A DNA stretch of 64,000 nucleotides from Eledone cirrhosa (lineage: Eukaryota), in NCBI GenBank assembly GCA_964016885.1, contig OZ024766.1:17546001-17610000 (forward strand), given 5' to 3'. The stretch's first letter is position 1; every line of letters begins with the position of its first letter. The translations under genes and the position numbers were made by a program. Shown in pieces: positions 35,630-64,000 of the stretch. Under the pieces are notes generated by a model. That model was not told the DNA's origin and did no database searches. It was given only the letters and a program-made list of their open reading frames with translations.

Positions 35630-37543
35630 AAAAAAATGAAACGAAATTTCATTTCTCACTCTTAGAACGGCTGTTACTTAAATATAAACAACGTATACCT
35701 TCCTGCCAGATTGTTGAACGTATATACTTACCTTGTGCATATTAGCAACTGAGTAGCCCAATTTGCATATCGAGTGGGTTAATCGGCTGGGTGCACCGAA
35801 AATGGGTTCACCGAAAAAAATATAATTTTTGGCATGGTACTGTGATTAATTTCATCAAGTGGATTTTAGGTAACACTTTATCAATTACCTTAGATTTATT
35901 TTCACTAATATCAGTCTTTTGTAGTGGGAACACCACTTCATCCCCACCATATGCTACTTGGGGGAACTGTGTACTTATAATTTGGTCTTCTACAATATCT
36001 ATTTATGCTGCCTCTATTGTTTGTCTCTTCTTCTACAACTGGTTGTGTATATATGTGTGTGTGTGTATATGAATGTAATTCCAAACAGCTTCACAATTTA
36101 AAGATTTTTCAGATAAGTTTACCAAATCTAAAATGAAATATAGGAAAAAAAGAAATATTGATTAACGGGAAAAATGAAACGAAATTTCATTTCCCACTCT
36201 TAGTACGGCTGTTACTTAAATATAAGTATGTACACGTACATACATATATGTATACAGACGTACAGTAGTATGTATATATATATACATAGATGCACACATA
36301 TATATATGTACGTATGGATTCACCGAACATTTATTATAATGCTCGGTGTGTTTGTAAACAAACATCCCGCATGAAGCTGTAGTGTCTAGCAACCATCGTT
36401 GCTCGTTTGTTCAACACTGACAAAGGAACGCTGTACTAGTTTCAATCTTATTAGCTATCGTCAGCAACGTATACTTTCCTGCCAGATTGTTGAACGTATA
36501 TACTTACCTTATGCATATTAACTGAGTAGCCCAATTTGCATATCGAGTGGGTTAATCGGCTGGGTTCACCGAAAAAAATATAATTTTTGGCATGGTAGTG
36601 TGATTAATTTCTTCAGGTGGATTTTAGGTAACACTTTATCAATTAATTTATATTTATTTTCACAGTCTTTTGTAGTGGAAACACCACTTCATCCCCACCA
36701 TATGCTACTTGGGGGAACTGTGTACTTATAATTTGGTCTTCTACAATATCTATTTATGCTGCCTCTATTGTTTGTCTCTTCTTCTACAACTGGTTATATA
36801 TATATGTGTGTGTGTGTATATGAATGTAATTCCAAACAGCTTCACAATTTCAAGATTTTTCAGATAAGTCTACCAAATCTAAAATGAAATATAGGAAAAA
36901 AAGAAATATTGATTAACGGAAAAAATGAAACGAAATTTCATTTCCCACTCTTAGTACGGCTGTTACTTAAATATAAGTATGTACACGTACATACATATAT
37001 GTATACAGACGTACAGTAGTACGTATATATATATACATACATGTACACATATATATATGTACGTATGGATTCACCGAACATTTATTATAATGCTCGGTGT
37101 GTTTGTAAACAAACATCCCGCATGAAGCCGTAGTGTCTAGCAACCATCGTTGCTCATTTGTTCAACACTGACAAAGGAACGCTGTACTAGTTTCAAGCTT
37201 ATTAGCTATCGTCAGCAACGTATACTTTCCTGCCAGATTGTTGAACGTATATACTTACCTTATGCATATTAACTGAGTAGCCCAATTTGCATATCGAGTG
37301 GGTTAATCGGCTGGGTTCACCGAAAAAAATATAATTTTTGGCATGGTAGTGTGATTAATTTCTTCAGGTGGATTTTAGGTAACACTTTATCAATTAATTT
37401 ATATTTATTTTCAGTCTTTTGTAGTGGAAACACCACTTCATCCCCACCATATGCTACTTGGGGGAACTGTGTACTTATAATTTGGTCTTCTACAATATCT
37501 ATTTATGCTGCATCCATTGTTTGTCTCTACTTCTACAACTGGT

Positions 37544-37576
<33 letters not shown>

Positions 37577-40500
37577 ATATGAATGTAATTCCAAACAGCT
37601 TCATAATTTCAAGATTTTTCAGATAAGTCTACCAAATCTAAAATGAAATATAGGAAAAAAAGAAATATTGATTAACGGAAAAAATGAAACGGAATTTCAT
37701 TTCCCACTCTTAGTACGGCTGTTACTTAAATATAAGTATGTACACGTACATACATATATGTATACAGACGTACAGTAGTATGTATATATATATACATACA
37801 TGCACACATATATATATGTACGTATGGATTCACCGAACATTTATTATAATGCTCGGTGTGTTTGTAAACAAACATCCCGCATGAAGCCGTTGTGTCTAGC
37901 AACCACCGTTGCTCGTTTGTTCAACACTGACAAAGGAACGCTGTACTAGTTTCAAGCTTATTAGCTATCGTCAGCAACGTATACTTTCCTGCCAGATTGT
38001 TGAACGTATATACTTACCTTATGCATATTAACTGAGTAGCCCAATTTGCATATCGAGTAGGTTAATCGGCTGGGTTCACCGAAAAAAATATAATTTTTGG
38101 CATGGTAGTGTGATTAATTTCTTCAGGTGGATTTTAGGTAACACTTTATCAATTAATTTATATTTATTTTCACAGTCTTTTGTAGTGGAAACACCACTTC
38201 ATCCCCACCATATGCTACTTGGGGGAACTGTGTACTTATAATTTGGTCTTCTACAATATCTATTTATGCTGCATCCATTGTTTGTCTCTACTTCTACAAC
38301 TGGTTATATATATATGTGTGTGTGTGTATATGAATGTAATTCCAAACAGCTTCACAATTTCAAGATTTTTCAGATAAGTCTACCAAATCTAAAAGGAAAT
38401 ATAGGAAAAAAATAAATATTGATTAACGGGAAAAATGAAACGAAATTTCATTTCCCACTCTTAGTACGGCTGTTACTTAAATATAAGTATGTACACGTAC
38501 ATATATATATGTATACAGACGTACAGTAGTATGTATATATATATACATAGATGCACACATATATATATGTACGTATGGATTCACCGAACATTTATTATAA
38601 TGCTCGGTGTGTTTGTAAACAAACATCCCGCATGAAGCCGTAGTGTCTAGCAACCATCGTTGCTCGTTTGTTCAACACTGACAAAGGAACGCTGTACTAG
38701 TTTCAAGCTTATTAGCTATCGTCAGCAACGTATACTTTCCTGCCAGATTGTTGAACGTATATACTTACCTTAAGCATATAAACAACTGAGTAGCCCAATT
38801 TGCATATCGAGTGGGTTAATCGGCTGGGTGCACTGAAAATGGGTTCACCGAAAAAAATATAATTTTTGGCATGGTAGTGTGATTAATTTCATCAAGTGGA
38901 TTTTAGGTAACACTTTATCAATTACCTTAGATTTATTTTCACAGTCTTTTGTAGTGGAAACACCACTTCATCCCCACCATATGCTACTTGGGGGAACTGT
39001 GTACTTATAATTTGGTCTTCTACAATATCTATTTATGCTGCATCCATTGTTTGTCTCTACTTCTACAACTGGTTATATATATATGTGTGTGTGTATATAT
39101 GTATGTAATTCCAAACAGCTTCATAATTTAAAGATTTTTCAGATAAGTTTACCAAATCTAAAATGAAATATAGGAAAAAAAGAAATATTGATTAACGGAA
39201 AAAATGAAACGAAATTTCATTTCCCACTCTTAGTACGGCTGTTACTTAAATATAAGTATGTACACGTACATACATATATGTATACAGACGTACAGTAGTA
39301 CGTATATATATATACATACATGTACACATATATATATGTACGTATGGACTCACCGAACATTTATTATAATGCTCGGTGTGTTTGTAAACAAGCATCCCGC
39401 ATGAAGCCGTAGTGTCTAGCAACCATCGTTGCTCGTTTGTTCAACACTGACAAAGGAACGCTGTACTAGTTTCAAGCTTATTAGCTATCGTCAGCAACGT
39501 ATACTTTCCTGCCAGATTGTTGAACATATATACTTACCTTATGCATATTAACTGAGTAGCCCAATTTGCATATCGAGTGGGTTGATCGGCTGGGTGCACT
39601 GAAAATGGGTTCACCGAAAAAAATATAATTTTTGTCATGGTAGTGTGATTAATTTCTTCAAGTGGATTTTAGGTAACACTTTATCAATTACCTTAGATTT
39701 ATTTTCACAGTCTTTTGTAGTGGAAACACCACTTCATCCCCACCATATGCTACTTGGGGGAACTGTGTACTTATAATTTGGTCTTCTACAATATCTATTT
39801 ATGCTGCCTCTATTGTTTGTCTCTTCTTCTACAACTGGTTATATATATATGTGTGTGTGTGTATATATGTGTGTGTGTGTGTGTGTATATGAATGTAATT
39901 CCAAACAGCTTCACAATTTAAAGATTTTTCAGATAAGTCTACCAAATCTAAAATGAAATATAGGAAAAAAAGAAATATTGATTAACGGAAAAAATGAAAC
40001 GAAATTTCATTTCCCACTCTTAGTACGGCTGTTACTTAAATATAAGTATGTACATGTACATACATATATGTATACAGACGTACAGTAGTATGTATATATA
40101 TATACATACATGCACACATATATATATGTACGTATGGATTCACCGAACATTTATTATAATGCTCGGTGTGTTTGTAAACAAACATCCCGCATGAAGCCGT
40201 TGTGTCTAGCAACCATCGTTGCTCGTTTGTTCAACACTGACAAAGGAACGCTGTACTAGTTTCAAGCTTATTAGCTATCGTCAGCAACGTATACTTTCCT
40301 GCCAGATTGTTGAACGTATATACTTACCTTAAGCATATTAACAACTGAGTAGCCCAATTTGCATATCGAGTGGGTTAATCGGCTGGGTTCACCGAAAAAA
40401 ATATAATTTTTGGCATGGTACTGTGATTAATTTCTTCAGGTGGATTTTAGGTAACACTTTATTAATTATTTCAGATTTATTTTCAGTCTTTTGTAGTGGA

Positions 40501-42131
40501 AACACCACTTCATCCCCACCATATGCTACTTGGGGGAACTGTGTACTTATAATTTGGTCTTCTACAATATCTATTTATGCTGCATCCATTGTTTGTCTCT
40601 ACTTCTACAACTGGTTGTGTATATATGTGTGTGTGTGTATATGAATGTAATTCCAAACAGCTTCACAATTTCAAGATTTTTCAGATAAGTTTACCAAATC
40701 TAAAATGAAATATAGGAAAAAAAGAAATATTGATTAACGGAAAAAATGAAACGAAATTTCATTTCCCACTCTTAGTACGGCTGTTACTTAAATATAAGTA
40801 TGTACATGTACATACATATATGTATACAGACGTACAGTAGTATGTATATATATATATACATACATGCACACATATATATATGTACGTATGGATTCACCGA
40901 ACATTTATTATAATGCTCGGTGTGTTTGTAAACAAACATCCCGCATGAAGCCGTTGTGTCTAGCAACCACCGTTGCTCGTTTGTTCAACACTGACAAAGG
41001 AACGCTGTACTAGTTTCAAGCTTATTAGCTATCGTCAGCAACGTATACTTTCCTGCCAGATTGTTGAACGTATATACTTACCTTATGCATATTAACTGAG
41101 TAGCCCAATTTGCATATCGAGTAGGTTAATCGGCTGGGTTCACCGAAAAAAATATAATTTTTGGCATGGTAGTGTGATTAATTTCTTCAGGTGGATTTTA
41201 GGTAACACTTTATCAATTAATTTATATTTATTTTCACAGTCTTTTGTAGTGGAAACACCACTTCATCCCCACCATATGCTACTTGGGGGAACTGTGTACT
41301 TATAATTTGGTCTTCTACAATATCTATTTATGCTGCATCCATTGTTTGTCTCTACTTCTACAACTGGTTATATATATATGTGTGTGTGTGTGTGTATATA
41401 TGAATGTAATTCCAAACAGCTTCATAATTTCAAGATTTTTCAGATAAGTTTACCAAATCTAAAATGAAATATAGGAAAAAAAGAAATATTGATTAACGGA
41501 AAAAATGAAACGAAATTTCATTTCCCACTCTTAGTACGGCTGTTACTTAAATATAAGTATGTACACGTACATAAATATATGTATACAGACGTACAGTAGT
41601 ATGTATATATATATATATATACATACATGCACACATACATATATATACGTATGGATTCACCGAACATTTATTATAATGCTCGGTGTGTTTGTAAACAAAC
41701 ATCCCGCATTAAGCCGTAGTGTCTAGCAACCATCGTTGCTCGTTTGTTCAACACTGACAAAGGAACGCTGTACTAGTTTCAAGCTTATTAGCTATCGTCA
41801 GCAACGTATACTTTCCTGCCAGATTGTTGAACGTATATACTTACCTTATGCATATTAACTGAGTAGCCCAATTTGCATATCGAGTGGGTTAATCGGCTGG
41901 GTTCACCGAAAGAAATATAATTTTTGGCATGGTAGTGTGATTAATTTCTTCAGGTGGATTTTAGGTAACACATTATCAATTAATTTATATTTATCTTCAC
42001 AGTCTTTTGTAGTGGAAACACCACTTCATCCCCACCATATGCTACTTGGGGGAACTGTGTACTTATAATTTGGTCTTCTACAATATCTATTTATGCTGCA
42101 TCCATTGTTTGTCTCTACTTCTACAACTGGT

Positions 42132-42164
<33 letters not shown>

Positions 42165-44438
42165 ATATATGAATGTAATTCCAAACAGCTTCATAATTTC
42201 AAGATTTTTCAGATAAGTTTACCAAATCTAAAATGAAATATAGGAAAAAAAGAAATATTGATTAACGGAAAAAATGAAACGGAATTTCATTTCCCACTCT
42301 TAGTACGGCTGTTACTTAAATATAAGTATGTACACGTACATACATATATGTATACAGACGTACAGTAGTACGTATATATATATACATACATGTACACATA
42401 TATATATGTACGTATGGATTCACCGAACATTTATTATAATGCTCGGTGTGTTTGTAAACAAGCATCCCGCATGAAGCCGTAGTGTCTAGCAACCATCGTT
42501 GCTCGTTTGTTCAACACTGACAAAGGAACGCTGTACTAGTTTCAAGCTTATTAGCTATCTTCAGCAACGTATACTTTCCTGCCAGATTGTTGAACATATA
42601 TACTTACCTTATGCATATTAACTGAGTAGCCCAATTTGCATATCGAGTGGGTTGATCGGCTGGGTGCACTGAAAATGGGTTCACCGAAAAAAATATAATT
42701 TTTGTCATGGTAGTGTGATTAATTTCTTCAAGTGGATTTTAGGTAACACTTTATCAATTACCTTAGATTTATTTTCACAGTCTTTTGTAGTGGAAACACC
42801 ACTTCATCCCCACCATATGCTACTTGGGGGAACTGTGTACTTATAATTTGGTCTTCTACAATATCTATTTATGCTGCCTCTATTGTTTGTCTCTTCTTCT
42901 ACAACTGGTTATATATATATGTGTGTGTGTGTATATATGTGTGTGTGTGTGTGTGTATATGAATGTAATTCCAAACAGCTTCACAATTTAAAGATTTTTC
43001 AGATAAGTCAACCAAATCTAAAATGAAATATAGGAAAAAAAGAAATATTGATTAACGGAAAAAATGAAACGAAATTTCATTTCCCACTCTTAGTACGGCT
43101 GTTACTTAAATATAAGTATGTACATGTACATACATATATGTATACAGACGTACAGTAGTATGTATATATATATACATACATGCACACATATATATATGTA
43201 CGTATGGATTCACCGAACATTTATTATAATGCTCGGTGTGTTTGTAAACAAACATCCCGCATGAAGCCGTTGTGTCTAGCAACCATCGTTGCTCGTTTGT
43301 TCAACACTGACAAAGGAACGCTGTACTAGTTTCAAGCTTATTAGCTATCGTCAGCAACGTATACTTTCCTGCCAGATTGTTGAACGTATATACTTACCTT
43401 AAGCATATTAACAACTGAGTAGCCCAATTTGCATATCGAGTGGGTTAATCGGCTGGGTTCACCGAAAAAAATATAATTTTTGGCATGGTACTGTGATTAA
43501 TTTCTTCAGGTGGATTTTAGGTAACACTTTATTAATTATTTCAGATTTATTTTCAGTCTTTTGTAGTGGAAACACCACTTCATCCCCACCATATGCTACT
43601 TGGGGGAACTGTGTACTTATAATTTGGTCTTCTACAATATCTATTTATGCTGCATCCATTGTTTGTCTCTACTTCTACAACTGGTTGTGTATATATGTGT
43701 GTGTGTGTATATGAATGTAATTCCAAACAGCTTCACAATTTCAAGATTTTTCAGATAAGTTTACCAAATCTAAAATGAAATATAGGAAAAAAAGAAATAT
43801 TGATTAACGGAAAAAATGAAACGAAATTTCATTTCCCACTCTTAGTACGGCTGTTACTTAAATATAAGTATGTACATGTACATACATATATGTATACAGA
43901 CGTACAGTAGTATGTATATATATATATACATACATGCACACATATATATATGTACGTATGGATTCACCGAACATTTATTATAATGCTCGGTGTGTTTGTA
44001 AACAAACATCCCGCATGAAGCCGTTGTGTCTAGCAACCACCGTTGCTCGTTTGTTCAACACTGACAAAGGAACGCTGTACTAGTTTCAAGCTTATTAGCT
44101 ATCGTCAGCAACGTATACTTTCCTGCCAGATTGTTGAACGTATATACTTACCTTATGCATATTAACTGAGTAGCCCAATTTGCATATCGAGTAGGTTAAT
44201 CGGCTGGGTTCACCGAAAAAAATATAATTTTTGGCATGGTAGTGTGATTAATTTCTTCAGGTGGATTTTAGGTAACACTTTATCAATTAATTTATATTTA
44301 TTTTCACAGTCTTTTGTAGTGGAAACACCACTTCATCCCCACCATATGCTACTTGGGGGAACTGTGTACTTATAATTTGGTCTTCTACAATATCTATTTA
44401 TGCTGCATCCATTGTTTGTCTCTACTTCTACAACTGGT

Positions 44439-44469
<31 letters not shown>

Positions 44470-45977
44470 ATATATGAATGTAATTCCAAACAGCTTCATA
44501 ATTTCAAGATTTTTCAGATAAGTTTACCAAATCTAAAATGAAATATAGGAAAAAAAGAAATATTGATTAACGGAAAAAATGAAACGAAATTTCATTTCCC
44601 ACTCTTAGTACGGCTGTTACTTAAATATAAGTATGTACACGTACATAAATATATGTATACAGACGTACAGTAGTATGTATATATATATATATATACATAC
44701 ATGCACACATACATATATATACGTATGGATTCACCGAACATTTATTATAATGCTCGGTGTGTTTGTAAACAAACATCCCGCATTAAGCCGTAGTGTCTAG
44801 CAACCATCGTTGCTCGTTTGTTCAACACTGACAAAGGAACGCTGTACTAGTTTCAAGCTTATTAGCTATCGTCAGCAACGTATACTTTCCTGCCAGATTG
44901 TTGAACGTATATACTTACCTTATGCATATTAACTGAGTAGCCCAATTTGCATATCGAGTGGGTTAATCGGCTGGGTTCACCGAAAAAAATATAATTTTTG
45001 GCATGGTAGTGTGATTAATTTCTTCAGGTGGATTTTAGGTAACACTTTATCAATTAATTTATATTTATTTTCACAGTCTTTTGTAGTGGAAACACCACTT
45101 CATCCCCACCATATGCTACTTGGGGGAACTGTGTACTTATAATTTGGTCTTCTACAATATCTATTTATGCTGCATCCATTGTTTGTCTCTACTTCTACAA
45201 CTGGTTATATATATATGTGTGTGTGTGTATATATGTGTGTGTGTGTATATGAAAGTAATTCCAAACAGCTTCACAATTTTAAGATTTTTCAGATAAGTCT
45301 ACCAAATCTAAAATGAAATATAGGAAAAAAAGAAATATTGATTAACGGAAAAAATGAAACGAAATTTCATTTCCCACTCTTAGTACGGCTGTTACTTAAA
45401 TATAAGTATGTACACGTACATTCATATATGTATACAGACGTACAGTAGTATGTATATATATATACATACATGCACACATATATATATGTACGTATGGATT
45501 CACCGAACATTTATTATAATGCTCAGTGTGTTTGTAAACAAACATCCCGCATGAAGCCGTTGTGTCTAGCAACCATCGTTGCTCGTTTGTTCAACACTGA
45601 CAAAGGAACGCTGTACTAGTTTCAATCTTATTAGCTATCGTCAGCAACGTATACTTTCCTGCCAGATTGTTGAACGTATATACTTAACTTATGCATATCA
45701 ACAACTGAGTAGCCCAATTTGCATATCGAGTGGGTTAATCGGCTGGGTCCACCGAAAAAAATATAATTTTTGGCATGGTACTGTGATTAATTTCTTCAAG
45801 TGGATTTTAGGTAACACTTTATCAATTAATTTATATTTATTTTCACAGTCTTTTGTAGTGGAAACACCACTTCATCCCCACCATATGCTACTTGGAGGAA
45901 CTGTGTACTTATAATTTGGTCTTCTACAATATCTATTTATGCTGCATCCATTGTTTGTCTCTACTTTTACAACTGGT

Positions 45978-46021
<44 letters not shown>

Positions 46022-46330
46022 AATGTAATTCCAAACAGCTTCACAATTTCAAGATTTTTCAGATAAGTCTACCAAATCTAAAATGAAATATAGGAAAAAA
46101 AGAAATATTGATTAACGGAAAAAATGAAACGAAATTTCATTTCCCACTCTTAGTACGGCTGTTACTTAAATATAAGTATGTACACGTACATACATATATG
46201 TATACAGACGTACAGTAGTATGTATATATATATACATACATGCACACATATATATATGTACGTATGGATTCACCGAACATTTATTATAATGCTCGGTGTG
46301 TTTGTAAACAAACATCCCGCATAAAGCCGT
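35630..46330. repeat. Macrosatellite of ~750-790-bp units (about 14 copies) containing a probable MULE terminal sequence
   Basis: Anchor aaaatgaaac(g/a)aaatttcat recurs at 36171, 36922, 37681, 38432, 39201, 39991, 40743, 41502, 42271, 43061, 43813, ~44576, 45351, 46121. Confidence 0.97.
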
Positions 46331-47465
46331 ACAGGCTTAATTAGGCTTAATTCGGGATGTTTGTTTACAAACCCACCGAGCATTATCATAAATGTTCTGT
46401 GAATCCATACGTACATATGTATATGTGTGCATGTATGAAATATAAGAATCAAAGAACTGTTCAAAACATTATTGTGCTTACAGCTGTTTCCTCCAAACCG
46501 AGGTTTGGATTCTTCGGAGCAATTTATTAATGCATGGACAGTTATATGACCTCCTTTTCAGCCGAGAGACATACCAATACATATTCAAACATTGATACAT
46601 ATGCAAATATTGTGGGTCAACATTCATTACAGAATTTAGAGTGGCAGTACACACTTCGAGATTACATTTATATTAATAGGTACAATCAAAAATCAAGGAT
46701 ATAGGTTAAAGTACAACATGAAGATAAGTGGTTATATAGTGCAAATGTTATATGTGTGGCACGCATGTGCGTCTTGTTTATATAGTGTGGCAGAGAGATA
46801 TGTGTGGTAGAGGCACTTAGGTAGGTAAATAAGAGTGTTAGGTTGGTAGATGTGGTGGCAAATTCTTTATATGATTGATATAGTCTGTGTGTGGAGAAAT
46901 ATTATAAGCATTAAAGATAGTGCAAGCATTAAAAGTGTTATAAGTAATGGAGATGCACAGCGCAGGGATGTCAAGTATTTCATGTGTGCATGTATGTATA
47001 TTATATAGGCTTAATTCGGGATGTTTGTTTACAAACCCACCGAGCATTATAATAAATGTTCTGTGAATCCATATGTATATGTGTGCATGTATGTATACTA
47101 TATAGGCTTAATTCGGGATGTTTGTTTACAAACCCACTGAGCATTATAATAAATGTTCTGTGAATCCATACGTACATATGTATATGTTTGCATGTATGTA
47201 TATTATATAGGCTTAATTCGGGATGTTTGTTTACAAACCCACCGAGCATTATAATAAATGTTCTGTGAATCCATACGTACATATATATGTGTGCATGTAT
47301 GTATATATATATACATACTACTGTACGTCTGTATACATATATGTATGTACGTGTACATACTTATGATTAAAATAAAAGATTTATTGAAATAGCATACTAA
47401 AATAAGATATATTTATAGAAATATGAATACCAAAAAAATATTTTTATAGAAATATTAATAATAAT

Positions 47466-51452: not shown

Positions 51453-52830
51453 CCCTTTAGCATTTACATTACTCTATATATACTATTGTATTGTCACAGT
51501 AAAGGCTTTACCCCACATAATATCTCACATAACATTTACATTACTCTATATATACTATTGTATTGTCACAGTAAAGGCTTTACCTCACATAATACCTCAC
51601 ATAACATTTACATTACTCTATATATACTATTGTATTGTCACAGTAAAGACTTTACCCCACATAATACCTCACATAACATTTACATTACTCTATATATACT
51701 ATTGTATTGTCACAGTAAAGGCTTTACCTCACATAATACCTCACATAACATTTACACTACTCTATATATACTATTGTATTGTCACAGTAAAGGCTTTACC
51801 TCACATAATACCTCACATAACATTTACATTACTCTATATATACTATTGTATTGTCACAGTAAAGACTTTACCCCACATAATACCTCACATAACATTTACA
51901 TTACTCTATATATACTATTGTATTGTCACAGTAAAGGCTTTACCTCACATAATATCTCACATAACATTTACATTACTCTATATATACTATTGTATTGTCA
52001 CAGTAAAGGCTTTACCTCACATAATATCTCACATAACATTTACATTACTCTATATATACTATTGTATTGTCACAGTAAAGGCTTTACCTCACATAATATC
52101 CCACATAACATTTACATTACTCTATATATACTATTGTATTGTCACAGTAAAGGCTTTACCTCACATAACATTTACATTACTCTATATATACTATTGTATT
52201 GTCACAGTAAAGACTTTACCCCACATAATACCTCACATAACATTTACATTACTCTATATATACTATTGTATTGTCACAGTAAAGGCTTTACCTCACATAA
52301 CATTTACATTACTCTATATATACTATTGTATTGTCACAGTAAAGGCTTTACCTCACATAATATCTCACAACATTTACATTACTCTATATATACTATTGTA
52401 TTGTCACAGTGAAGGCTTTACCTCACATAATACCTCACATAACATTTACATTACTCTATATATACTATTGTATTGTCACAGTGAAGGCTTTACCTCACAT
52501 AATATCTCACATACCATTTACATTACTCTATATATACTATTGTATTGTCACAGTAAAGGCTTTACCACACATAATACCTCACATAACATTTACATTACTC
52601 TATATATACTATTGTATTGTCACAGTAAAGGCTTTACCTCACATAATATCTCACATAACATTTACATTACTCTATATATACTATTGTATTGTCACAGTAA
52701 AGGCTTTACCTCACATAATATCTCACATAACATTTACATTACTCTATATATACTATTGTATTGTCACAGTAAAGGCTTTACCGCACATAATATCGAATCT
52801 AAGTAATTTTGATTAATTCATAATGTGATA
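51453..52830 (+). repeat. 72-bp satellite grown from the left end of the piggyBac-like MITE
   Basis: Begins TTAA|ccctttagcatttacatt and exits into cacataatatcgaatcta, collinear with the MITE at 48363-48392 + 48795-48845. Confidence 0.93.
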
Positions 52831-52869
52831 ATATTTTATCATTGATATCTGTTAAGAATTCTGTTTTCT

Positions 52870-53297
52870 CTATATATGCATATGGGCTAGGATTGCCTGG
52901 ACCTCTTGAGGTAGGCGAGAGAAGAAGAATTGCTTCAGGAAAGGGACTATCCTGATCTTGGGAATCACTCAATTCCTGCAAATGCCGGAGAAAAGCGGTA
53001 GGGGTTCTGTCACCTAGTCGTTCGTCCTCGATCAATGACCGAAAACGACTCTCTACCGATTTACAGTTCCTTCTCAAGATCTCGCCTTTTAAAGAATCAT
53101 ACGTTAAGTCAGGGTGGGGGGTGGGGGTCTGTAATTAGGTCTTGGACCGAATCTGCTAAATTAGGGGGGGAAGTCCGCTAATTAAGACAGCGAAGCGCTG
53201 GTCAGACTCGGTCTTACAGACCGTAGAATACGCCTGTAGCTGGGCGAACCTCAGCTTGCGGTTTCCGGTAAAGGCGGGCAAATGGGGTGTACTCATT
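52870..53297 (-). mobile_element. Ty3/Gypsy gag N-terminal remnant
   Basis: LPAFTGNRKLRFAQLQA ... YDSLKGEILRR ... LIEDERLGDRTPTAFLRHLQEL ... RLPQEVQAIL; stops and frameshifts. Confidence 0.85.
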
Positions 53298-55082: not shown

Positions 55083-55310
55083 TCAGAAGCTCCCGCGTTT
55101 TGCGACGCATGAGGCAATCATGGTGTTCCACCGCGTTCGGTCAACAGCCAGTTGCACAGCGTCCCGCCATTGTCTGTTTGTCGCTCGCAGGTCCCTCTCA
55201 ACTGTCTGGTACCAGTTCATTTTGGGTCGCCATCTCTGTCTGCTTCCCTGTGGGTTCCATTTAAGTACTTGGTTCGCCAGTTGCACAGCGTCCCGCCATT
55301 GTCTGTTTGT
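55083..55310 (-). mobile_element. RTE LINE 3' end (third family)
   Basis: QVLKWNPQGSRQRWRPKMNWYQTVERDL...AVDRTRWNTMIASC. Confidence 0.85.
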
Positions 55311-56130
55311 TTCTGGCGTAGGGCTCCACATTCTTATCCTTTGTGTTCTTCTTCCTTTATATGTGGGGAAGAAGGTGTATTGTGGTGACACTATAGGTGC
55401 CACCGAATATTTCTGAGCCAGCATTTCGTCCTTCATTCGGACCATAATGCTGGCATACAGCTTTCCTCTTTCAATAAAGAGTATGTCATTTTTAATTTCT
55501 TTCAGAACCAGCTCAATTTGACTTTCGGTCAATTGCGCTGGCTTTCTTGTTTCGTTGGTTATGGTTCTGTAGGTTACGGTATTCTTATAAACCTGTTGAT
55601 CGTAAAAGAACCATCCTCCCCAAAAGATACGTATTTTCTAGCCTCTAGCAAATTTTCCTTGGCGTTCGTGATGTCTATGGCTTTGTATTCCGTGGCTCTC
55701 CTGAGTGTTTGGGCAAAAGAAATTTTGTCTTTGTTTGTTGTTGTAATGTTGTTGGTTTCCTTATTTGTGGTGTTATTTTTTTCTTGAAAATTAATTTTTT
55801 CATTTGAATTAAAATTCTTTTTTTTTTTCATTGGAGAGGAGGGGCTGTTCAACAGTTTGAACTGTTGTTTCCTCTTTCTCGCTTGTTTTTTTGGTAGGCA
55901 TGGCGTTCGCTTCCAATATGGCGATATCGTTATCAACGATATCGATAAACATTTTTTGAGTTAATTATTTTTCACCCCAAAAGGGGTGAAAATATAATTA
56001 CCCTACGTCTATAGTCCCAGACTAGGGGTTAGAGTTAATGATACAAAAGAATTCAAAAAAAAATTCACTCACAAATATAGCAGGTAAAATTCCGAATCAC
56101 AGAGCCGATATGAAACACGTCTACTATCCT
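55311..56130 (-). mobile_element. Probable LINE 5' region/ORF1 remnant
   Basis: Basic low-complexity leader, SFAQTL motif, then IELVLKEIKNDILFIERGKLYASIMVRM...FFPTYKGRRTQRIR; A-rich coding strand; internal stop. Confidence 0.5.
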
Positions 56131-59170: not shown

Positions 59171-59370
59171 CTCACTTTCTATCTCTCTCTGGAAGTAATC
59201 TGCTGTACTCAGGGATGGGCAGGGATGGGCTCCCCTTAGGTTCAGCATTATCTCCCGAAGGTCAGTTTCTCCTCTTACTACACGCGAGGGCCTGGCCCTT
59301 TGGTGTGGTCTTAGCTACTTCACCGCCATTCAGGTCGGCATCACTGCCGCCACCTCACCTCAATCACCGC

Positions 59371-59551
59371 ATCCGTCTTGTGACACCATTCTCTATGTAG
59401 GTACACACAGGTAGTACTGTCACCGCCGCCTACTACGACAGCGTCTCGCCCCTGCCCCGCCGCCTACTACGACAGCGTCCGCGTCCCGCCCTTGCCCCGC
59501 TGCTTGCGCATGATTTTATAGAGGGGGGTCGATAACTTTCTTGTTGTTACA
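59371..59551 (-). other. Possible short LTR plus tRNA-Leu primer-binding site; GC-rich with a 23-bp direct repeat
   Basis: Minus strand TGTAAC...ctataaaa...CCTACA, then tggtgtcacaagacggat (15/18 match to tRNA-Leu PBS TGGTGTCAGAAGTGGGAT). Confidence 0.4.
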
Positions 59552-59712
59552 TCCCGTTCGTTGTGGCTGCTCTGTGGCGTTGTAGCCAGTCTATTGAGCT
59601 ACTTCTGTAGCCCTGTGATCACCAACCCTTTTCATACCACGGAACGGTTTCATGTCAGATAATCTTTCCGTGTTATTCAAGTGTATTTCGATAAAGAGAG
59701 CAATAATAAAAA

Positions 59713-60441
59713 CTTTTGACTCACGACTGTGCTCCAGTTTGGCCCCACACTTTTGTGCTTTCTCTAAAAAGATTGACTTATTAAAGGGAGGTAAAAGTGT
59801 AGTCTTTTGACTCATGACTGCTCCAGTTTGGCCCCACACTTTTGTGCTTTCTCTAAAAAGATTGACTTATTAAAGGGAGGTAAAAGTGTAGTCTTTTGAC
59901 TCATGACTGCTCCAGTTTGGCCCCACACTTTTGTGCTTTCTCTAAAAAGATTGACTTATTAAAGGGAGGTAAAAGTGTAGTCTTTTGACTCGTGACTGCT
60001 CCAGTTTGGCCCCACACTTTTGTGCTTTCTCTAAAAAGATTGACTTATTAAAGGGAGGTAAAAGTGTATAGTCTTTTGACTCATGACTGTGCTCCAGTTT
60101 GGCCCCACACTTTTGTGCTTTCTCTAAAAAGATTGACTTATTAAAGGGAGGTAAAAGTGTATAGTCTTTTGACTCATGACTGTGCTCCAGTTTGGCCCCA
60201 CACTTTTGTGCTTTCTCTAAAAAGATTGACTTATTAAAGGGAGGTAAAAGTGTAGTCTTTTGACTCATGACTGCTCCAGTTTGGCCCCACACTTTTGTGC
60301 TTTCTCTAAAAATATCGATTTATTAAAGGGAGGTAAAAGTGTAGTCTTTTGACTCATGACTGTGCTCCAGTTTGGCCCCACACTTTTGTGCTTTCTCTAA
60401 AAAGATTGATTTATTAAAGGGAGGTAAAAGTCTTTTGACTC
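59713..60441. repeat. 89-93-bp tandem array (about 8 copies) immediately downstream of the NS1-tail ORF
   Basis: Unit ttttgactcatgactg(tg)ctccagtttggccccacacttttgtgctttctctaaaaagattgacttattaaagggaggtaaaagtgtagtc. Confidence 0.95.
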
Positions 60442-60451
60442 ATATCTGAGT

Positions 60452-63400
60452 CTATAAATTTTCATTGAAAAGTTCTGGTGATGGTACGTTTCTGTTGGAA
60501 TTCATTAATCTTGCGTATTTCCTCCATCTGCATTCTCTGGTGTCGTTTTCTTTATCTGAATCGTCGTCTTCTCTGTCGCTGATTTCCTGTCTAAGGGTGT
60601 CCCCGCTTCTATCTGGAGACAGAGTCCGAAGTCTGGTTCGTCTTTGTTCATCGACTTGTTGGAGTCTTTCATACTCTTCTCTGTCGCTGATTTCCAGTCT
60701 AAGGGTGTCCCCGCTTCTATCTGGAGACAGAGTCCGAAGTCTGGTTCGTCTTTGTTCATCGACTTGTTGGAGTCTTTCATACTCATCTCTGTCGCTGATT
60801 TCCAGTCTAAGGGTGTCCCAGCTTCTATCTGGAGACAGAGTCCGAAGTCTCGTTCGTCTTTGTTCATCGACTTGTTGGAGTCTTTCATACTCGTCTCTGT
60901 CGCTGATTTCCAGTCTAAGGGTGTCCCCGCTTCTATCTGGAGACAGAGTCCGAAGTCTGGTTCGTCTTTGTTCATCGACTTGTTGGAGTCTTTCATACTC
61001 ATCTCTGTCGCTGATTTCCAGTCTAAGGGTGTCCCCGCTTCTATCTGGAAACAGAGTCCGAAGTCTGGTTCGTCTTTGTTCATCGACTTGTTGGAGTCTT
61101 TCATACTCATCTCTGTCGCTGATTTCCAGTCTAAGGGTGTCCCCGCTTCTATCTGGAGACAGAGTCCGAAGTCTGGTTCGTCTTTGTTCATCGACTTGTT
61201 GGAGTCCTTCATACTCTTCCCTGTCGCTGATTTCCAGTCTAAGGGTGTCCCCGCTTCTATTTGGAGACAGAGTCCGAAGTCTGGTTCGTCTTTGTTCATC
61301 GACTTGTTGGAGTCCTTCATACTCTTCTCTGTCGCTGATTTCCAGTCTAAGGGTGTCCCCGCTTCTATTTGGAGACAGAGTCCGAAGTCTGGTTCGTCTT
61401 TGTTCATCGACTTGTTGGAGTCCTTCATACTCTTCTCTGTCGCTGATTTCCAGTCTAAGGGTGTCCCCGCTTCTATCTGGAGACAGAGTCCGAAGTCTGG
61501 TTCGTCTTTGTTCATCGACTTGTTGGAGTCCTTCATACTCTTCTCTGTCGCTGATTTCCAGTCTAAGGGTGTCCCCGCTTCTATCTGGAGACAGAGTCCG
61601 AAGTCTGGTTCGTCTTTGTTCATCGACTTGTTGGAGTCCTTCATACTCTTCCCTGTCGCTGATTTCCTGTCTAAGGGTGTCCCCGCTTCTATCTGGAGAC
61701 AGAGTCCGAAGTCTGGTTCGTCTTTGTTCATCGACTTGTTGGAGTCCTTCATACTCTTCTCTGTCGCTGATTTCCAGTCTAAGGGTGTCCCCGCTTCTAT
61801 CTGGAGACAGAGTCCGAAGTCTGGTTCGTCTTTGTTCATCGACTTGTTGGAGTCCTTCATACTCTTCTCTGTCGCTGATTTCCAGTCTAAGGGTGTCCCC
61901 GCTTCTATCTGGAGACAGAGTCCGAAGTCTGGTTCGTCTTTGTTCATCGACTTGTTGGAGTCCTTCATACTCTTCCCTGTCGCTGATTTCCTGTCTAAGG
62001 GTGTCCCCGCTTCTATCTGGAGACAGAGTCCGAAGTCTGGTTCGTCTTTGTTCATCGACTTGTTGGAGTCTTTCATACTCTTCTCTGTCGCTGATTTCCA
62101 GTCTAAGGGTGTCCCCGCTTCTATCTGGAGACAGAGTCCGAAGTCTGGTTCGTCTTTGTTCATCGACTTGTTGGAGTCCTTTATACTCGTCTCTGTCGCT
62201 GATTTCCAGTCTAAGGGTGTCCCCGCTTCTATCTGGAGACAGAGTCCGAAGTCTGGTTCGTCTTTGTTCATCGACTTGTTGGAGTCCTTCATACTCTTCC
62301 CTGTCGCTGATTTCCTGTCTAAGGGTGTCCCCGCTTCTATTTGGAGACAGAGTCTGAAGTCTGGTTCGTCTTTGTTCATCGACTTGTTGGAGTCTTTCAT
62401 ACTCTTCTCTGTCGCTGATTTCCAGTCTAAGGGTGTCCCCGCTTCTATCTGGAGACAGAGTCCGAAGTCTGGTTCGTCTTTGTTCATCGACTTGTTGGAG
62501 TCCTTCATACTCTTCCCTGTCGCTGATTTCCTGTCTAAGGGTGTCCCCGCTTCTATTTGGAGACAGAGTCTGAAGTCTGGTTCGTCTTTGTTCATCGACT
62601 TGTTGGAGTCTTTCATACTCTTCTCTGTCGCTGATTTCCAGTCTAAGGGTGTCCCCGCTTCTATCTGGAGACAGAGTCCGAAGTCTGGTTCGTCTTTGTT
62701 CATCGACTTGTTGGAGTCCTTCATACTCTTCCCTGTCGCTGATTTCCTGTCTAAGGGTGTCCCCGCTTCTATTTGGAGACAGAGTCTGAAGTCTGGTTCG
62801 TCTTTGTTCATCGACTTGTTGGAGTCCTTCATACTCTTCTCTGTCGCTGATTTCCAGTCTAAGGGTGTCCCCGCTTCTATCTGGAGACAGAGTCTGAAGT
62901 CTGGTTCGTCTTTGTTCATCGACTTGTTGGAGTCCTTCATACTCTTCCCTGTCGCTGATTTCCAGTCTAAGGGTGTCCCCGCTTCTATCTGGAGACAGAG
63001 TCTGAAGTCTGGTTCGTCTTTGTTCATCGACTTGTTGGAGTCTTTCATACTCTTCTCTGTCGCTGATTTCCAGTCTAAGGGTGTCCCCGCTTCTATCTGG
63101 AGACAGAGTCTGAAGTCTGGTTCGTCTTTGTTCATCGACTTGTTGGAGTCTTTCATACTCTTCTCTGTCGCTGATTTCCAGTCTAAGGGTGTCCCCGCTT
63201 CTATCTGGAGACAGAGTCTGAAGTCTGGTTCGTCTTTGTTCATCGACTTGTTGGAGTCTTTCATACTCTTCTCTGTCGCTGATTTCCAGTCTAAGGGTGT
63301 CCCCGCTTCTATCTGGAGACAGAGTCTGAAGTCTGGTTCGTCTTTGTTCATCGACTTGTTGGAGTCTTTCATACTCTTCTCTGTCGCTGATTTCCAGTCT

Positions 63401-63607
63401 AAGGGTGTCCCCGCTTCTATCTGGAGACAGAGTCCGAAGTCTGGTTCGTCTTTGTTCATCGACTTGTTGGAGTCTTTCATACTCGTCTCTGTCGCTGATT
63501 TCCAGTCTAAGGGTGTCCCCGCTTCTATCTGGAGACAGAGTCCGAAGTCTGGTTCGTCTTTGTTCATCGACTTGTTGGAGTCCTTCATACTCGTCTAAAA
63601 TGTACAC
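60452..63607 (-). CDS. 1051-aa repeat ORF (28 x 36 aa), in frame with upstream NS1; expression unknown
   Basis: 5 aa + 28 x EYE[R/G]LQQVDEQRRTRL[R/Q]TLSP[D/N]RSGDTLR[L/Q]EISDR[E/D] + 38-aa unique tail. The start codon is GTG, so it is probably the NS1 C-terminal tail rather than an independent gene. Confidence 0.45.
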   Translation of the reverse strand: MYILDEYEGLQQVDEQRRTRLRTLSPDRSGDTLRLEISDRDEYERLQQVDEQRRTRLRTLSPDRSGDTLRLEISDREEYERLQQVDEQRRTRLQTLSPDRSGDTLRLEISDREEYERLQQVDEQRRTRLQTLSPDRSGDTLRLEISDREEYERLQQVDEQRRTRLQTLSPDRSGDTLRLEISDREEYERLQQVDEQRRTRLQTLSPDRSGDTLRLEISDREEYEGLQQVDEQRRTRLQTLSPDRSGDTLRLEISDREEYEGLQQVDEQRRTRLQTLSPNRSGDTLRQEISDREEYEGLQQVDEQRRTRLRTLSPDRSGDTLRLEISDREEYERLQQVDEQRRTRLQTLSPNRSGDTLRQEISDREEYEGLQQVDEQRRTRLRTLSPDRSGDTLRLEISDREEYERLQQVDEQRRTRLQTLSPNRSGDTLRQEISDREEYEGLQQVDEQRRTRLRTLSPDRSGDTLRLEISDRDEYKGLQQVDEQRRTRLRTLSPDRSGDTLRLEISDREEYERLQQVDEQRRTRLRTLSPDRSGDTLRQEISDREEYEGLQQVDEQRRTRLRTLSPDRSGDTLRLEISDREEYEGLQQVDEQRRTRLRTLSPDRSGDTLRLEISDREEYEGLQQVDEQRRTRLRTLSPDRSGDTLRQEISDREEYEGLQQVDEQRRTRLRTLSPDRSGDTLRLEISDREEYEGLQQVDEQRRTRLRTLSPDRSGDTLRLEISDREEYEGLQQVDEQRRTRLRTLSPNRSGDTLRLEISDREEYEGLQQVDEQRRTRLRTLSPNRSGDTLRLEISDREEYEGLQQVDEQRRTRLRTLSPDRSGDTLRLEISDRDEYERLQQVDEQRRTRLRTLFPDRSGDTLRLEISDRDEYERLQQVDEQRRTRLRTLSPDRSGDTLRLEISDRDEYERLQQVDEQRRTRLRTLSPDRSWDTLRLEISDRDEYERLQQVDEQRRTRLRTLSPDRSGDTLRLEISDREEYERLQQVDEQRRTRLRTLSPDRSGDTLRQEISDREDDDSDKENDTRECRWRKYARLMNSNRNVPSPELFNENL
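60569..63592 (-). repeat. 108-bp tandem array, 28 copies, no indels
   Basis: 540-bp line periodicity (60601, 61141, 61681, 62221, 62761, 63301); 1008 aa = 28 x 36. Confidence 0.98.
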
Positions 63608-63610
63608 AAG

Positions 63611-64000
63611 TTAATCATCTGAAAAACTGCTATCTTCATTAATCATTTTGGAGAAGCGATGTTCATAGAAAAGTATATTCCATATGAATGGATTTAGCTT
63701 CTTTTTCACATATTTAAGGAACGGTGATGCTGTATTAAATGTGAATTCGGTGTACCTTGTAATGAAAGCCACCTCCAATAACGGTGCATTTTGATCGAAT
63801 TTGTGATTTGACGTTATAATTAACGGAGTTCTGTGGACAACCTGGTCTTGTTTGAATTTTATTGCGACCTCTCTATCAACACCTTCTGCTAATTTTTTGA
63901 AAGTCTGTAGAGTCTCAAGTGTAAAGTTTGGCTCCTCTATCAAACCTATTTCGACATTGATAAGGTTTTGGAATGGGAAGCTACTTGTTCCCTGAATCGT
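63611..64000 (-). pseudogene. NS1: Endogenous parvovirus/densovirus NS1 (SF3 helicase) C-terminal half; continues beyond the window
   Basis: Open from the edge: TIQGTSSFPFQNLINVEIGLIEEP (Walker B) ... FKKLAEGVDREVAIKFK (motif B') ... RTPLIITSN (motif C) ... AFITR. Confidence 0.88.

Follow-up and report, generated by a model that had tools for sequence, protein, structure and literature searches.

A 28-copy minisatellite derived from the tail of a parvoviral NS1 gene in the genome of Eledone cirrhosa, with relatives that carry the capsid gene first

In the excerpts of the literature on which we draw throughout, all parvoviruses carry the non-structural (NS) gene on the left and, on the right, the capsid (VP) gene (PMC11357303), the only layouts described are NS-first monosense or ambisense (PMC9896142, PMC12355741, PMC13517815, PMC13426907), and a bipartite genome is described as an exception (PMC10267136). 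No described parvovirus of octopods was found in the literature searched. Octopus is not mentioned in the main texts of PMC5013282, PMC6950620, and PMC13055364, supplements such as the species tables of PMC5013282 lying outside the search. Nor was a report of octopus parvoviral endogenous viral elements (EVEs) or of a capsid-first monosense parvovirus found in this literature, which consisted mostly of open-access main texts and does not establish absence from print. Here we describe a remnant of a parvoviral NS1 gene in a 64,000-nucleotide stretch (the window, C27:17546001-17610000) of contig C27 of the 3.0-Gb genome of the octopod Eledone cirrhosa (working label G000); position numbers below are those of the window. 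Taken together, our results make it very probable that the window holds a dead, 5'-truncated NS1 fragment, one tail piece of which expanded neutrally into 28 copies, and that the parent viruses were hairpin-ended and capsid-first. The remnant and its immediate surroundings are as follows.

63614..64000, minus strand: C-terminal half of the NS1 SF3 helicase (Walker B, B', and C motifs), a 129-amino acid (aa) open frame ending SSFSDD
63611..63613, minus strand: premature TAA within the former NS1 frame
63596..63610, minus strand: five NS1 linker codons from the stop to the first repeat unit
60572..63595, minus strand: minisatellite of 28 x 108 bp from a 36-codon acidic piece of the NS1 tail
60452..60571, minus strand: last 39 unique NS1 codons and the stop (TAG, 60454-60452), at which the viral sequence ends
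59713..60431, strand not assigned: host 89-bp tandem array of 7.9 copies abutting the viral stop codon, not a viral 3' untranslated region

On the minus strand, the helicase frame ends SSFSDD-TAA and the same frame then runs on without a stop from 63610 to 60455. The first-pass annotation gave this run as 1050 aa; it measures 1052 aa, made up of the 5 linker codons, the 28 units, and the 39-aa tail. The 28 units are free of indels as that annotation had described them, with 17 distinct variants, a mean pairwise difference of 2.7 nucleotides (nt), and an arrangement in ordered blocks (local higher-order order). Tandem Repeats Finder reported a period of 108, 28.1 copies, 97% matches, and 0% indels. 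The product of the array would be charged and of low complexity, and the first Met of the NS1 frame in the long open stretch occurs only at residue 1036.

The helicase piece inside the window matched the Pfam model Parvo_NS1 (PF01057) with an E value of 2.5e-5. The full helicase open frame is 164 aa long and starts 105 nt past the window end, where Walker A is found; with this part included, the E value for Parvo_NS1 was 2.2e-14, followed by the papillomavirus helicase at 8.6e-13. The remnant extends about 525 nt outside the window, as far as a 48-49-bp host satellite, and in this part it is frameshifted twice, once directly upstream of Walker A. Its aligned part begins at about residue 199 of 567 and runs through three reading frames with one internal stop. 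Walker A and HUH domains had both been expected upstream; the former lies just past the window end, while the latter is absent. The remnant, including its flank outside the window, has neither an HUH domain nor a leader exon, promoter, or capsid gene joined to it, and no capsid or NS1 N-terminal sequence was found within the next 25 kb upstream. The locus is an EVE by its setting, with viral sequence flanked on both sides by host satellites in a 22-Mb contig, and it is covered by contigs of three runs. The idea that a second remnant at C27:17.64 Mb supplies the missing 5' part was rejected, as this remnant covers the same residues, with 71% nt identity, and is a separate copy. The 89-bp array and a GC-rich stretch beyond it were likewise considered as the viral 3' end and rejected, because what they match, if anything, is host repeats and not the paralog flanks. 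This GC-rich single-copy stretch (59180-59620, minus strand) lies between two arrays, contains a TATA-like box and short internal repeats, and matched nothing elsewhere in the genome search or in the viral flanks.

The origin of the stop and of the repeat unit can be read from the paralogs. Eighteen alignments from 13 distinct loci cover the stop column, and all have a sense codon there (with the break itself read as X). Because the column is open in 13/13 paralogous loci, the TAA is a nonsense change in a formerly single NS1 ORF (open reading frame), as had been proposed from the window sequence. The same 13 loci contain the 108-bp unit once and then pass straight into the tail; additional counts of the unit motif in paralogs were opposite-strand matches. 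One relative, a sister copy on contig C11, has one unit only and is identical to the window copy at 216/226 nt (96%) over the last unit and tail. Past the NS1 stop, the sister continues into a viral 3' end with a polyA signal and a hairpin remnant, and the window copy matches it at 17 of the next 50 nt. The array thus reads as an expansion of one viral tail piece, and a young one, since a single-unit sister is so nearly identical. The repeated piece belongs to the fastest-changing part of NS1, with 47-78% protein identity to the paralogs. The sister itself (C11:15.444 Mb; L047:1733-2283) has kept the leader, the 5' part of the capsid gene, and the NS1 tail, while about 550 bp of other repeats plus a poly-A run stand in place of its middle.

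The first-pass annotation had also placed the expansion after integration. That the unit is single-copy viral tail in the relatives, the sister included, is borne out, and the expansion probably followed integration. Two points weigh against too firm a reading of this history: the C11 sister begins 7 nt after the stop column and therefore dates the expansion, not the stop, and the expansion may have occurred in a defective viral genome before integration.

As a satellite, the array is ordinary for this genome. In a survey of 129 kb of the window and adjoining DNA, which counted units of 30 bp or longer in 4 or more copies, 35 arrays covered 44% of the sequence; the period was divisible by 3 in 14/35, and one frame was open over at least 90% of the length in 17/35. 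An AT-rich 72-bp satellite 45-65 kb from the array contains 2380 and 1481 open codons and is likely non-coding. The array is therefore real beyond chance, and its long open frame is not unusual locally. Slippage and unequal exchange, as in many nearby arrays, would likely have made the 28 copies. A role for in-frame microhomology behind a unit length divisible by 3 was considered and rejected as a general bias: the array ends share a short acidic-codon repeat, yet only 55 of 145 short direct repeats in five single-copy tails are in frame. A second virus-derived minisatellite lies 30 kb away (C27:17643271-17644612; L018:8271-9612), consisting of about 17 copies of an 80-bp, frame-breaking piece of a capsid gene. 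Among other features, the 72-bp satellite recurs at 12-1339 and 51461-52794 in the window and at L075:415-7647 and L076:1976-8182, and a 751-bp unit is repeated in about 14 tandem copies (94% matches) at 35689-46331. A DUF7041 gag-like remnant (52816-53281, minus strand) and a LINE (long interspersed nuclear element) ORF1-like remnant (55086-55960, minus strand) are also present, and relatives of the latter adjoin viral copies on contigs C12 and C25.

The family to which the remnant belongs is more unusual than the array itself, and it lay outside the view of the first-pass annotation. At least 46 matches to the helicase and 33 to the capsid C-terminus were found in the genome, and a search with a second NS1 lineage gave 56 matches, cross-hits included. 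The parvoviral origin of NS1 proposed earlier was supported from several sides. Whole paralog NS1 matched PF01057 with an E value of 7e-16. The best matches of the helicase by sequence among solved structures are parvoviral NS1 and adeno-associated virus Rep, ahead of papillomavirus E1, and its top Atlas clusters are NS1 (0.97-0.98). By eye, paralogs and relatives show an HxH motif, a candidate for the HUH endonuclease domain, in their N-terminal part, where no Pfam model matched. The paralog capsid ORF is 524-540 aa long and carries a PLA2 motif (PF08398, E 2.4e-13). Its best solved match by sequence is the capsid of Penaeus monodon metallodensovirus (PmMDV; 6wh3, E 5e-8 over 57 residues), its Atlas neighbours are parvoviral VP1 clusters (0.93-0.94), and the one close relative of the protein to bear a name, 37% identical, is annotated in Octopus vulgaris.

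In a helicase tree of 49 domains, the remnant grouped with copies C25a and C1 in a supported 20-row clade (100/99). The tree was built without ICTV references; its two named rows, unclassified bird-swab parvoviruses, fall outside the clade, and none is named inside. The lineage has the SF3 NS1, the PLA2-bearing capsid (in paralogs, and absent from the window remnant), and the palindromic termini of Parvoviridae, with a size within 3.6-6.2 kb, and lacks the NS-left, VP-right cassettes of that family (PMC11357303). Judged from these sequence features, the parent virus would work like a parvovirus, and it is not assigned here to a described subfamily or genus.

In the paralogs, only a few bases separate the end of the capsid ORF from the NS1 frame that follows it, both being on the same strand. 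Thirty capsid C-terminus loci were fetched, 28 of which contained the capsid end; with overlaps merged, these represent 21 distinct ends, and in 19 of them the 5' part of NS1 lies at most 400 nt downstream. Of the 24 NS1-end rows, 5 have a capsid gene no more than 1 kb away, in each case from the other lineage and in a stacked cluster, and none (0/24) has one of its own lineage. Long palindromes were found upstream of the capsid gene in a head-to-head arrangement (C10) and downstream of NS1 in a tail-to-tail arrangement (C998), such palindromes being a feature of rolling-hairpin replication intermediates. They share an 18-nt core that occurs 11 times in the genome, always at four loci (control, 0), and the core-to-core distance is 3846 nt. 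The genomic copies thus show that in the parent viruses the capsid gene lay upstream of NS1, both on one strand, in a linear genome about 3.9 kb long that ended in palindromic hairpins. The four loci are near-identical young insertions.

C5:102.83 Mb (L071): young insertion
C10:49.49 Mb (L032): young insertion
C14:8.50 Mb (L070): young insertion
C998 (L030): young insertion

Their capsid genes differ by 0-4 of 1572 nt and their sampled outer flanks do not match one another, so the insertions are recent and separate, and they suggest that the virus was active not long ago in this host group. All four are inverted and rearranged, resembling replication intermediates.

The reversed gene order extends beyond the first lineage. 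On C12 and C2, the same capsid-first order is seen in a second lineage, whose NS1 is 25% identical and sits on a long branch of its own. No related locus was confirmed in the viral and metagenome contigs searched, and gene order outside this genome could therefore be read only indirectly, from P0005, a 34% identical NS1 encoded on an ENA contig. Its 185-aa N-terminal extension scores 80.7 as an off-frame capsid C-terminus, against 21.8 +/- 2.7 (maximum 29.7) in 40 shuffles, and the match ends at profile column 514 of 524; the other frame shift and a control region were at background. In sum, the reversed order of this lineage is well supported in the genomic copies.

How NS1 and capsid would be expressed from such a genome can be predicted for the first lineage, to which the analysis of splice signals was confined. 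In 13 distinct copies, the region upstream of the capsid ATG includes an 18-codon leader, usually 85-101 nt behind a TATA box. A GT(A/G)AGT donor follows leader codon 18 exactly (phase 0) in 11/13 copies and is decayed in 2. The search pattern fixed only codons 1-7; over codons 8-18, pairwise differences by codon position were 358, 247, and 383, with position 2 lowest, as in coding sequence. Among 11 distinct capsid-NS1 spacers, the NS1 frame is readable in 9, and all 9 have a pyrimidine tract and a CAG acceptor in phase 0 with NS1 at a varying distance (34, 38, or 39 nt); one further copy shows the same acceptor arrangement by eye. From these signals alone, we consider it likely that the whole capsid gene is nested inside an NS1 intron. 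One left promoter would drive the transcript, the 18-codon leader would be spliced across the capsid gene onto NS1, and unspliced RNA might give capsid by leaky scanning or reinitiation. Some observations speak against this scheme. The first Met of the NS1 body is Leu in several copies and the second is conserved, so this early in-frame Met could start NS1 without a splice. Moreover, the leader ATG stands in a strong context, which leaves translation of the capsid unexplained.

Among the alternatives to a neutral expansion, the one that survives best is that the array acts as RNA, yielding antisense PIWI-interacting RNAs (piRNAs) from a one-strand transposon graveyard, with the 28-fold expansion raising the dose of guides against the parent virus. 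We regard this as conceivable but rather doubtful. A survey of orientation started from 134 non-viral ORFs, each 110 aa or longer, near nine copy groups; 90 were retained and 44 dropped by eye, mostly as opposite-strand shadows of longer ORFs. A Pfam match was obtained for 17, of which 16 are transposon and 1 is ankyrin (about 11 distinct elements, from 6 regions), and every one of the 17 shares the strand of the viral genes. None of these 17 came from the region of the window, where a tblastn search with 24 such ORFs yielded 4 remnants, 4/4 on the minus strand, like both viral remnants. The stack at C12:9072346-9088668 (L027-L029) comprises four or more parvoviral copies from two lineages, all facing the same way, together with remnants of hAT, Tigger, and Helitron elements, and similar stacks occur at C2:345.36 Mb, C841, and C25. 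Such stacking of different viruses on C12 and C2 favors an RNA role, as do the shared strand and the antisense 26-30-nt 5'U RNAs reported from parvo-like EVEs of starfish and sea anemone (PMC6085071). The arrangement fits uni-strand piRNA clusters on sequence grounds, and that copies are kept in one-strand graveyards that would yield antisense piRNAs is about an even bet. The role for the array itself is weakened by the choice of scanned ORFs by eye and the want of Pfam matches in the window region, where the pattern rests on the four remnants. In addition, the expanded piece is the fastest-changing part of NS1 and hence a poor target, and the local satellite background explains the expansion without selection.

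A protein product of the locus is far less probable. The first-pass annotation had suggested a helicase-repeat fusion, and such a protein, or a repeat protein co-opted by the host, would have to arise by read-through, splicing around the stop, or a stop-free allele; we give this very little credence. The long open frame, its indel-free units, and their charged low-complexity product are what such a protein might look like, and the +1 frame even offers an ATG at 63588 followed by about 1027 codons, yet the promoter, leader, and HUH part are absent, the first in-frame helicase Met lies after Walker A, and the frameshift directly before Walker A is present in both alleles seen. Read-through of the TAA alone would yield nothing, because the remnant is 5'-truncated and twice frameshifted upstream of Walker A. 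A weak AG just before unit 1 might conceivably allow a splice into the array from some host exon. The units themselves do not look constrained: their 11 variant codons comprise 9 non-synonymous and 2 synonymous changes, against 231:76 possible, which is neutral-like as far as sequence can tell, and the probability of zero stops among the 11 changes is 0.55. With only 11 variant codons, weak selection on the units would escape detection, and this counts against too firm a conclusion. As a domesticated gene, the locus lacks an intact frame with a start (two frameshifts, one stop, no leader), and no purifying selection was seen in this small sample. Young arrays whose unit derives from an ORF keep its open frames. 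The commonest unit is stop-free in 4/6 frames, and it probably stays so simply through youth, being cut from coding sequence; long open frames are in any case common in the local satellites. Pfam matches of the 1052-aa repeat to POTRA_3, DUF6296, and MIR were discarded as summed repeat artefacts with no single significant stretch. The locus therefore likely encodes no protein, and given the frameshifts, the neutral-like units, and the nearby arrays with long open frames, the array is best read as a neutral expansion in a dead fragment.

It is equally hard to credit that the capsid-first order is an integration artefact of circular or head-to-tail concatemers of an ordinary NS-VP parvovirus. 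The young copies are indeed rearranged, with inversions and truncations, but a concatemer junction is argued against by the capsid-NS1 spacer, where 50-60 nt without a hairpin separate the capsid stop from the NS1 body. This spacer folds at -3 to -9 kcal/mol, as compared with -78 and -81 for the terminal palindromes, which lie outside both genes, a placement that largely refutes the artefact. A TATA box and the leader precede the capsid gene and a polyA signal follows NS1, and the order recurs in the 19/21 ends across copies that are 60-100% identical, as well as in the second lineage.

An over-expansion of the array in the assembly is just as improbable, for although short-read contigs cannot span the array, its 17 distinct units stand in ordered blocks and the repeat-to-unique depth is 29-51 in runs X1-X3. 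A contig depth ratio is not equal to copy number, and run X4, from a different sample whose kind is not on record, gave a ratio of only 3.5; all four runs come from one study, the whole-genome reads probably from the source sample. These points weigh against the copy number, which holds as far as contig depth tells. The stop was bridged unchanged in a contig of run X1 (0 differences) and in one of X2, where the other allele, with 7 substitutions and 2 indels elsewhere, is represented; X3 is gapped at the stop, and the X4 coverage was not counted because the stop falls too close to its end. The TAA thus appeared in both bridging contigs, answering the read check that had been proposed. Three runs of restriction site-associated DNA sequencing from other individuals contributed 1, 0, and 1 reads at the locus and none at the stop. 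One contig each in X2 and X3 joins the repeat unit (63523) directly to sequence like that past the 89-bp array (59613-59640, compared by eye). The unique tail and the 89-bp array may thus be absent from the second allele, but this flank is a multi-copy host repeat.

The neutral expansion in a dead NS1 fragment offers a clear and datable case in which a viral gene gave rise to a satellite, and it illustrates that repeat frames of 1000 codons in this genome are not evidence of protein. Expression from early to late is thought to follow from the NS-left, VP-right order. That order has been given as universal for monosense parvoviruses, and the lineage described here departs from it. If the capsid gene does lie inside an NS1 intron, splicing alone would set the ratio of replication to capsid proteins, opposite in sense to the known single-promoter parvoviruses. 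The one-strand clusters, in turn, make EVE-derived piRNA defence testable in a cephalopod. We lean, slightly, toward a broader picture in which octopods carry and still acquire an undescribed capsid-first lineage, with the capsid nested in a single NS1 intron, that spans two lineages and relatives outside this genome, and whose copies, this satellite among them, the host stacks in one-strand clusters of piRNA type.

Compared with known systems, the copies resemble the endogenous parvoviral elements of invertebrates in being chromosomal NS1 and capsid remnants with stops, indels, and truncations, in many copies and several lineages (PMC5013282, PMC13426907). Those reports name molluscs, not octopus or cephalopods, whereas the present genome adds four near-identical loci, hairpin bridges, and the capsid-first order. 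Monosense Parvoviridae share the SF3 NS1 (with a putative HUH part in the present lineage), the PLA2 capsid, the palindromic termini, and a size of about 4 kb (PMC11357303, PMC10267136); they have a separate VP cassette on the right, while here the order is reversed and the capsid is predicted to lie inside an NS1 intron (PMC11357303). PmMDV (Metallovirinae) gave the best capsid sequence match and is a homotelomeric parvovirus of a marine invertebrate. It is without PLA2 (PMC11357303), which the present lineage has. The clade that includes Swazi bat-associated megaparvovirus 1 has a PLA2-containing ORF upstream of NS1 and a splice donor, but its capsid gene still follows NS1 in a 6.4-kb genome, whereas here the whole capsid gene comes first (PMC13426907). 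The EVE-derived piRNA loci of starfish and sea anemone (PMC6085071) and Aedes (PMC7522710) are similar in that viral sequences lie among transposon remnants in one orientation; small RNAs have been reported there, and here the likeness is one of DNA arrangement alone. Lastly, the array shares its open frames with other coding-derived minisatellites and differs from them in its viral source, which is traceable to a single-copy sister that is 96% identical.

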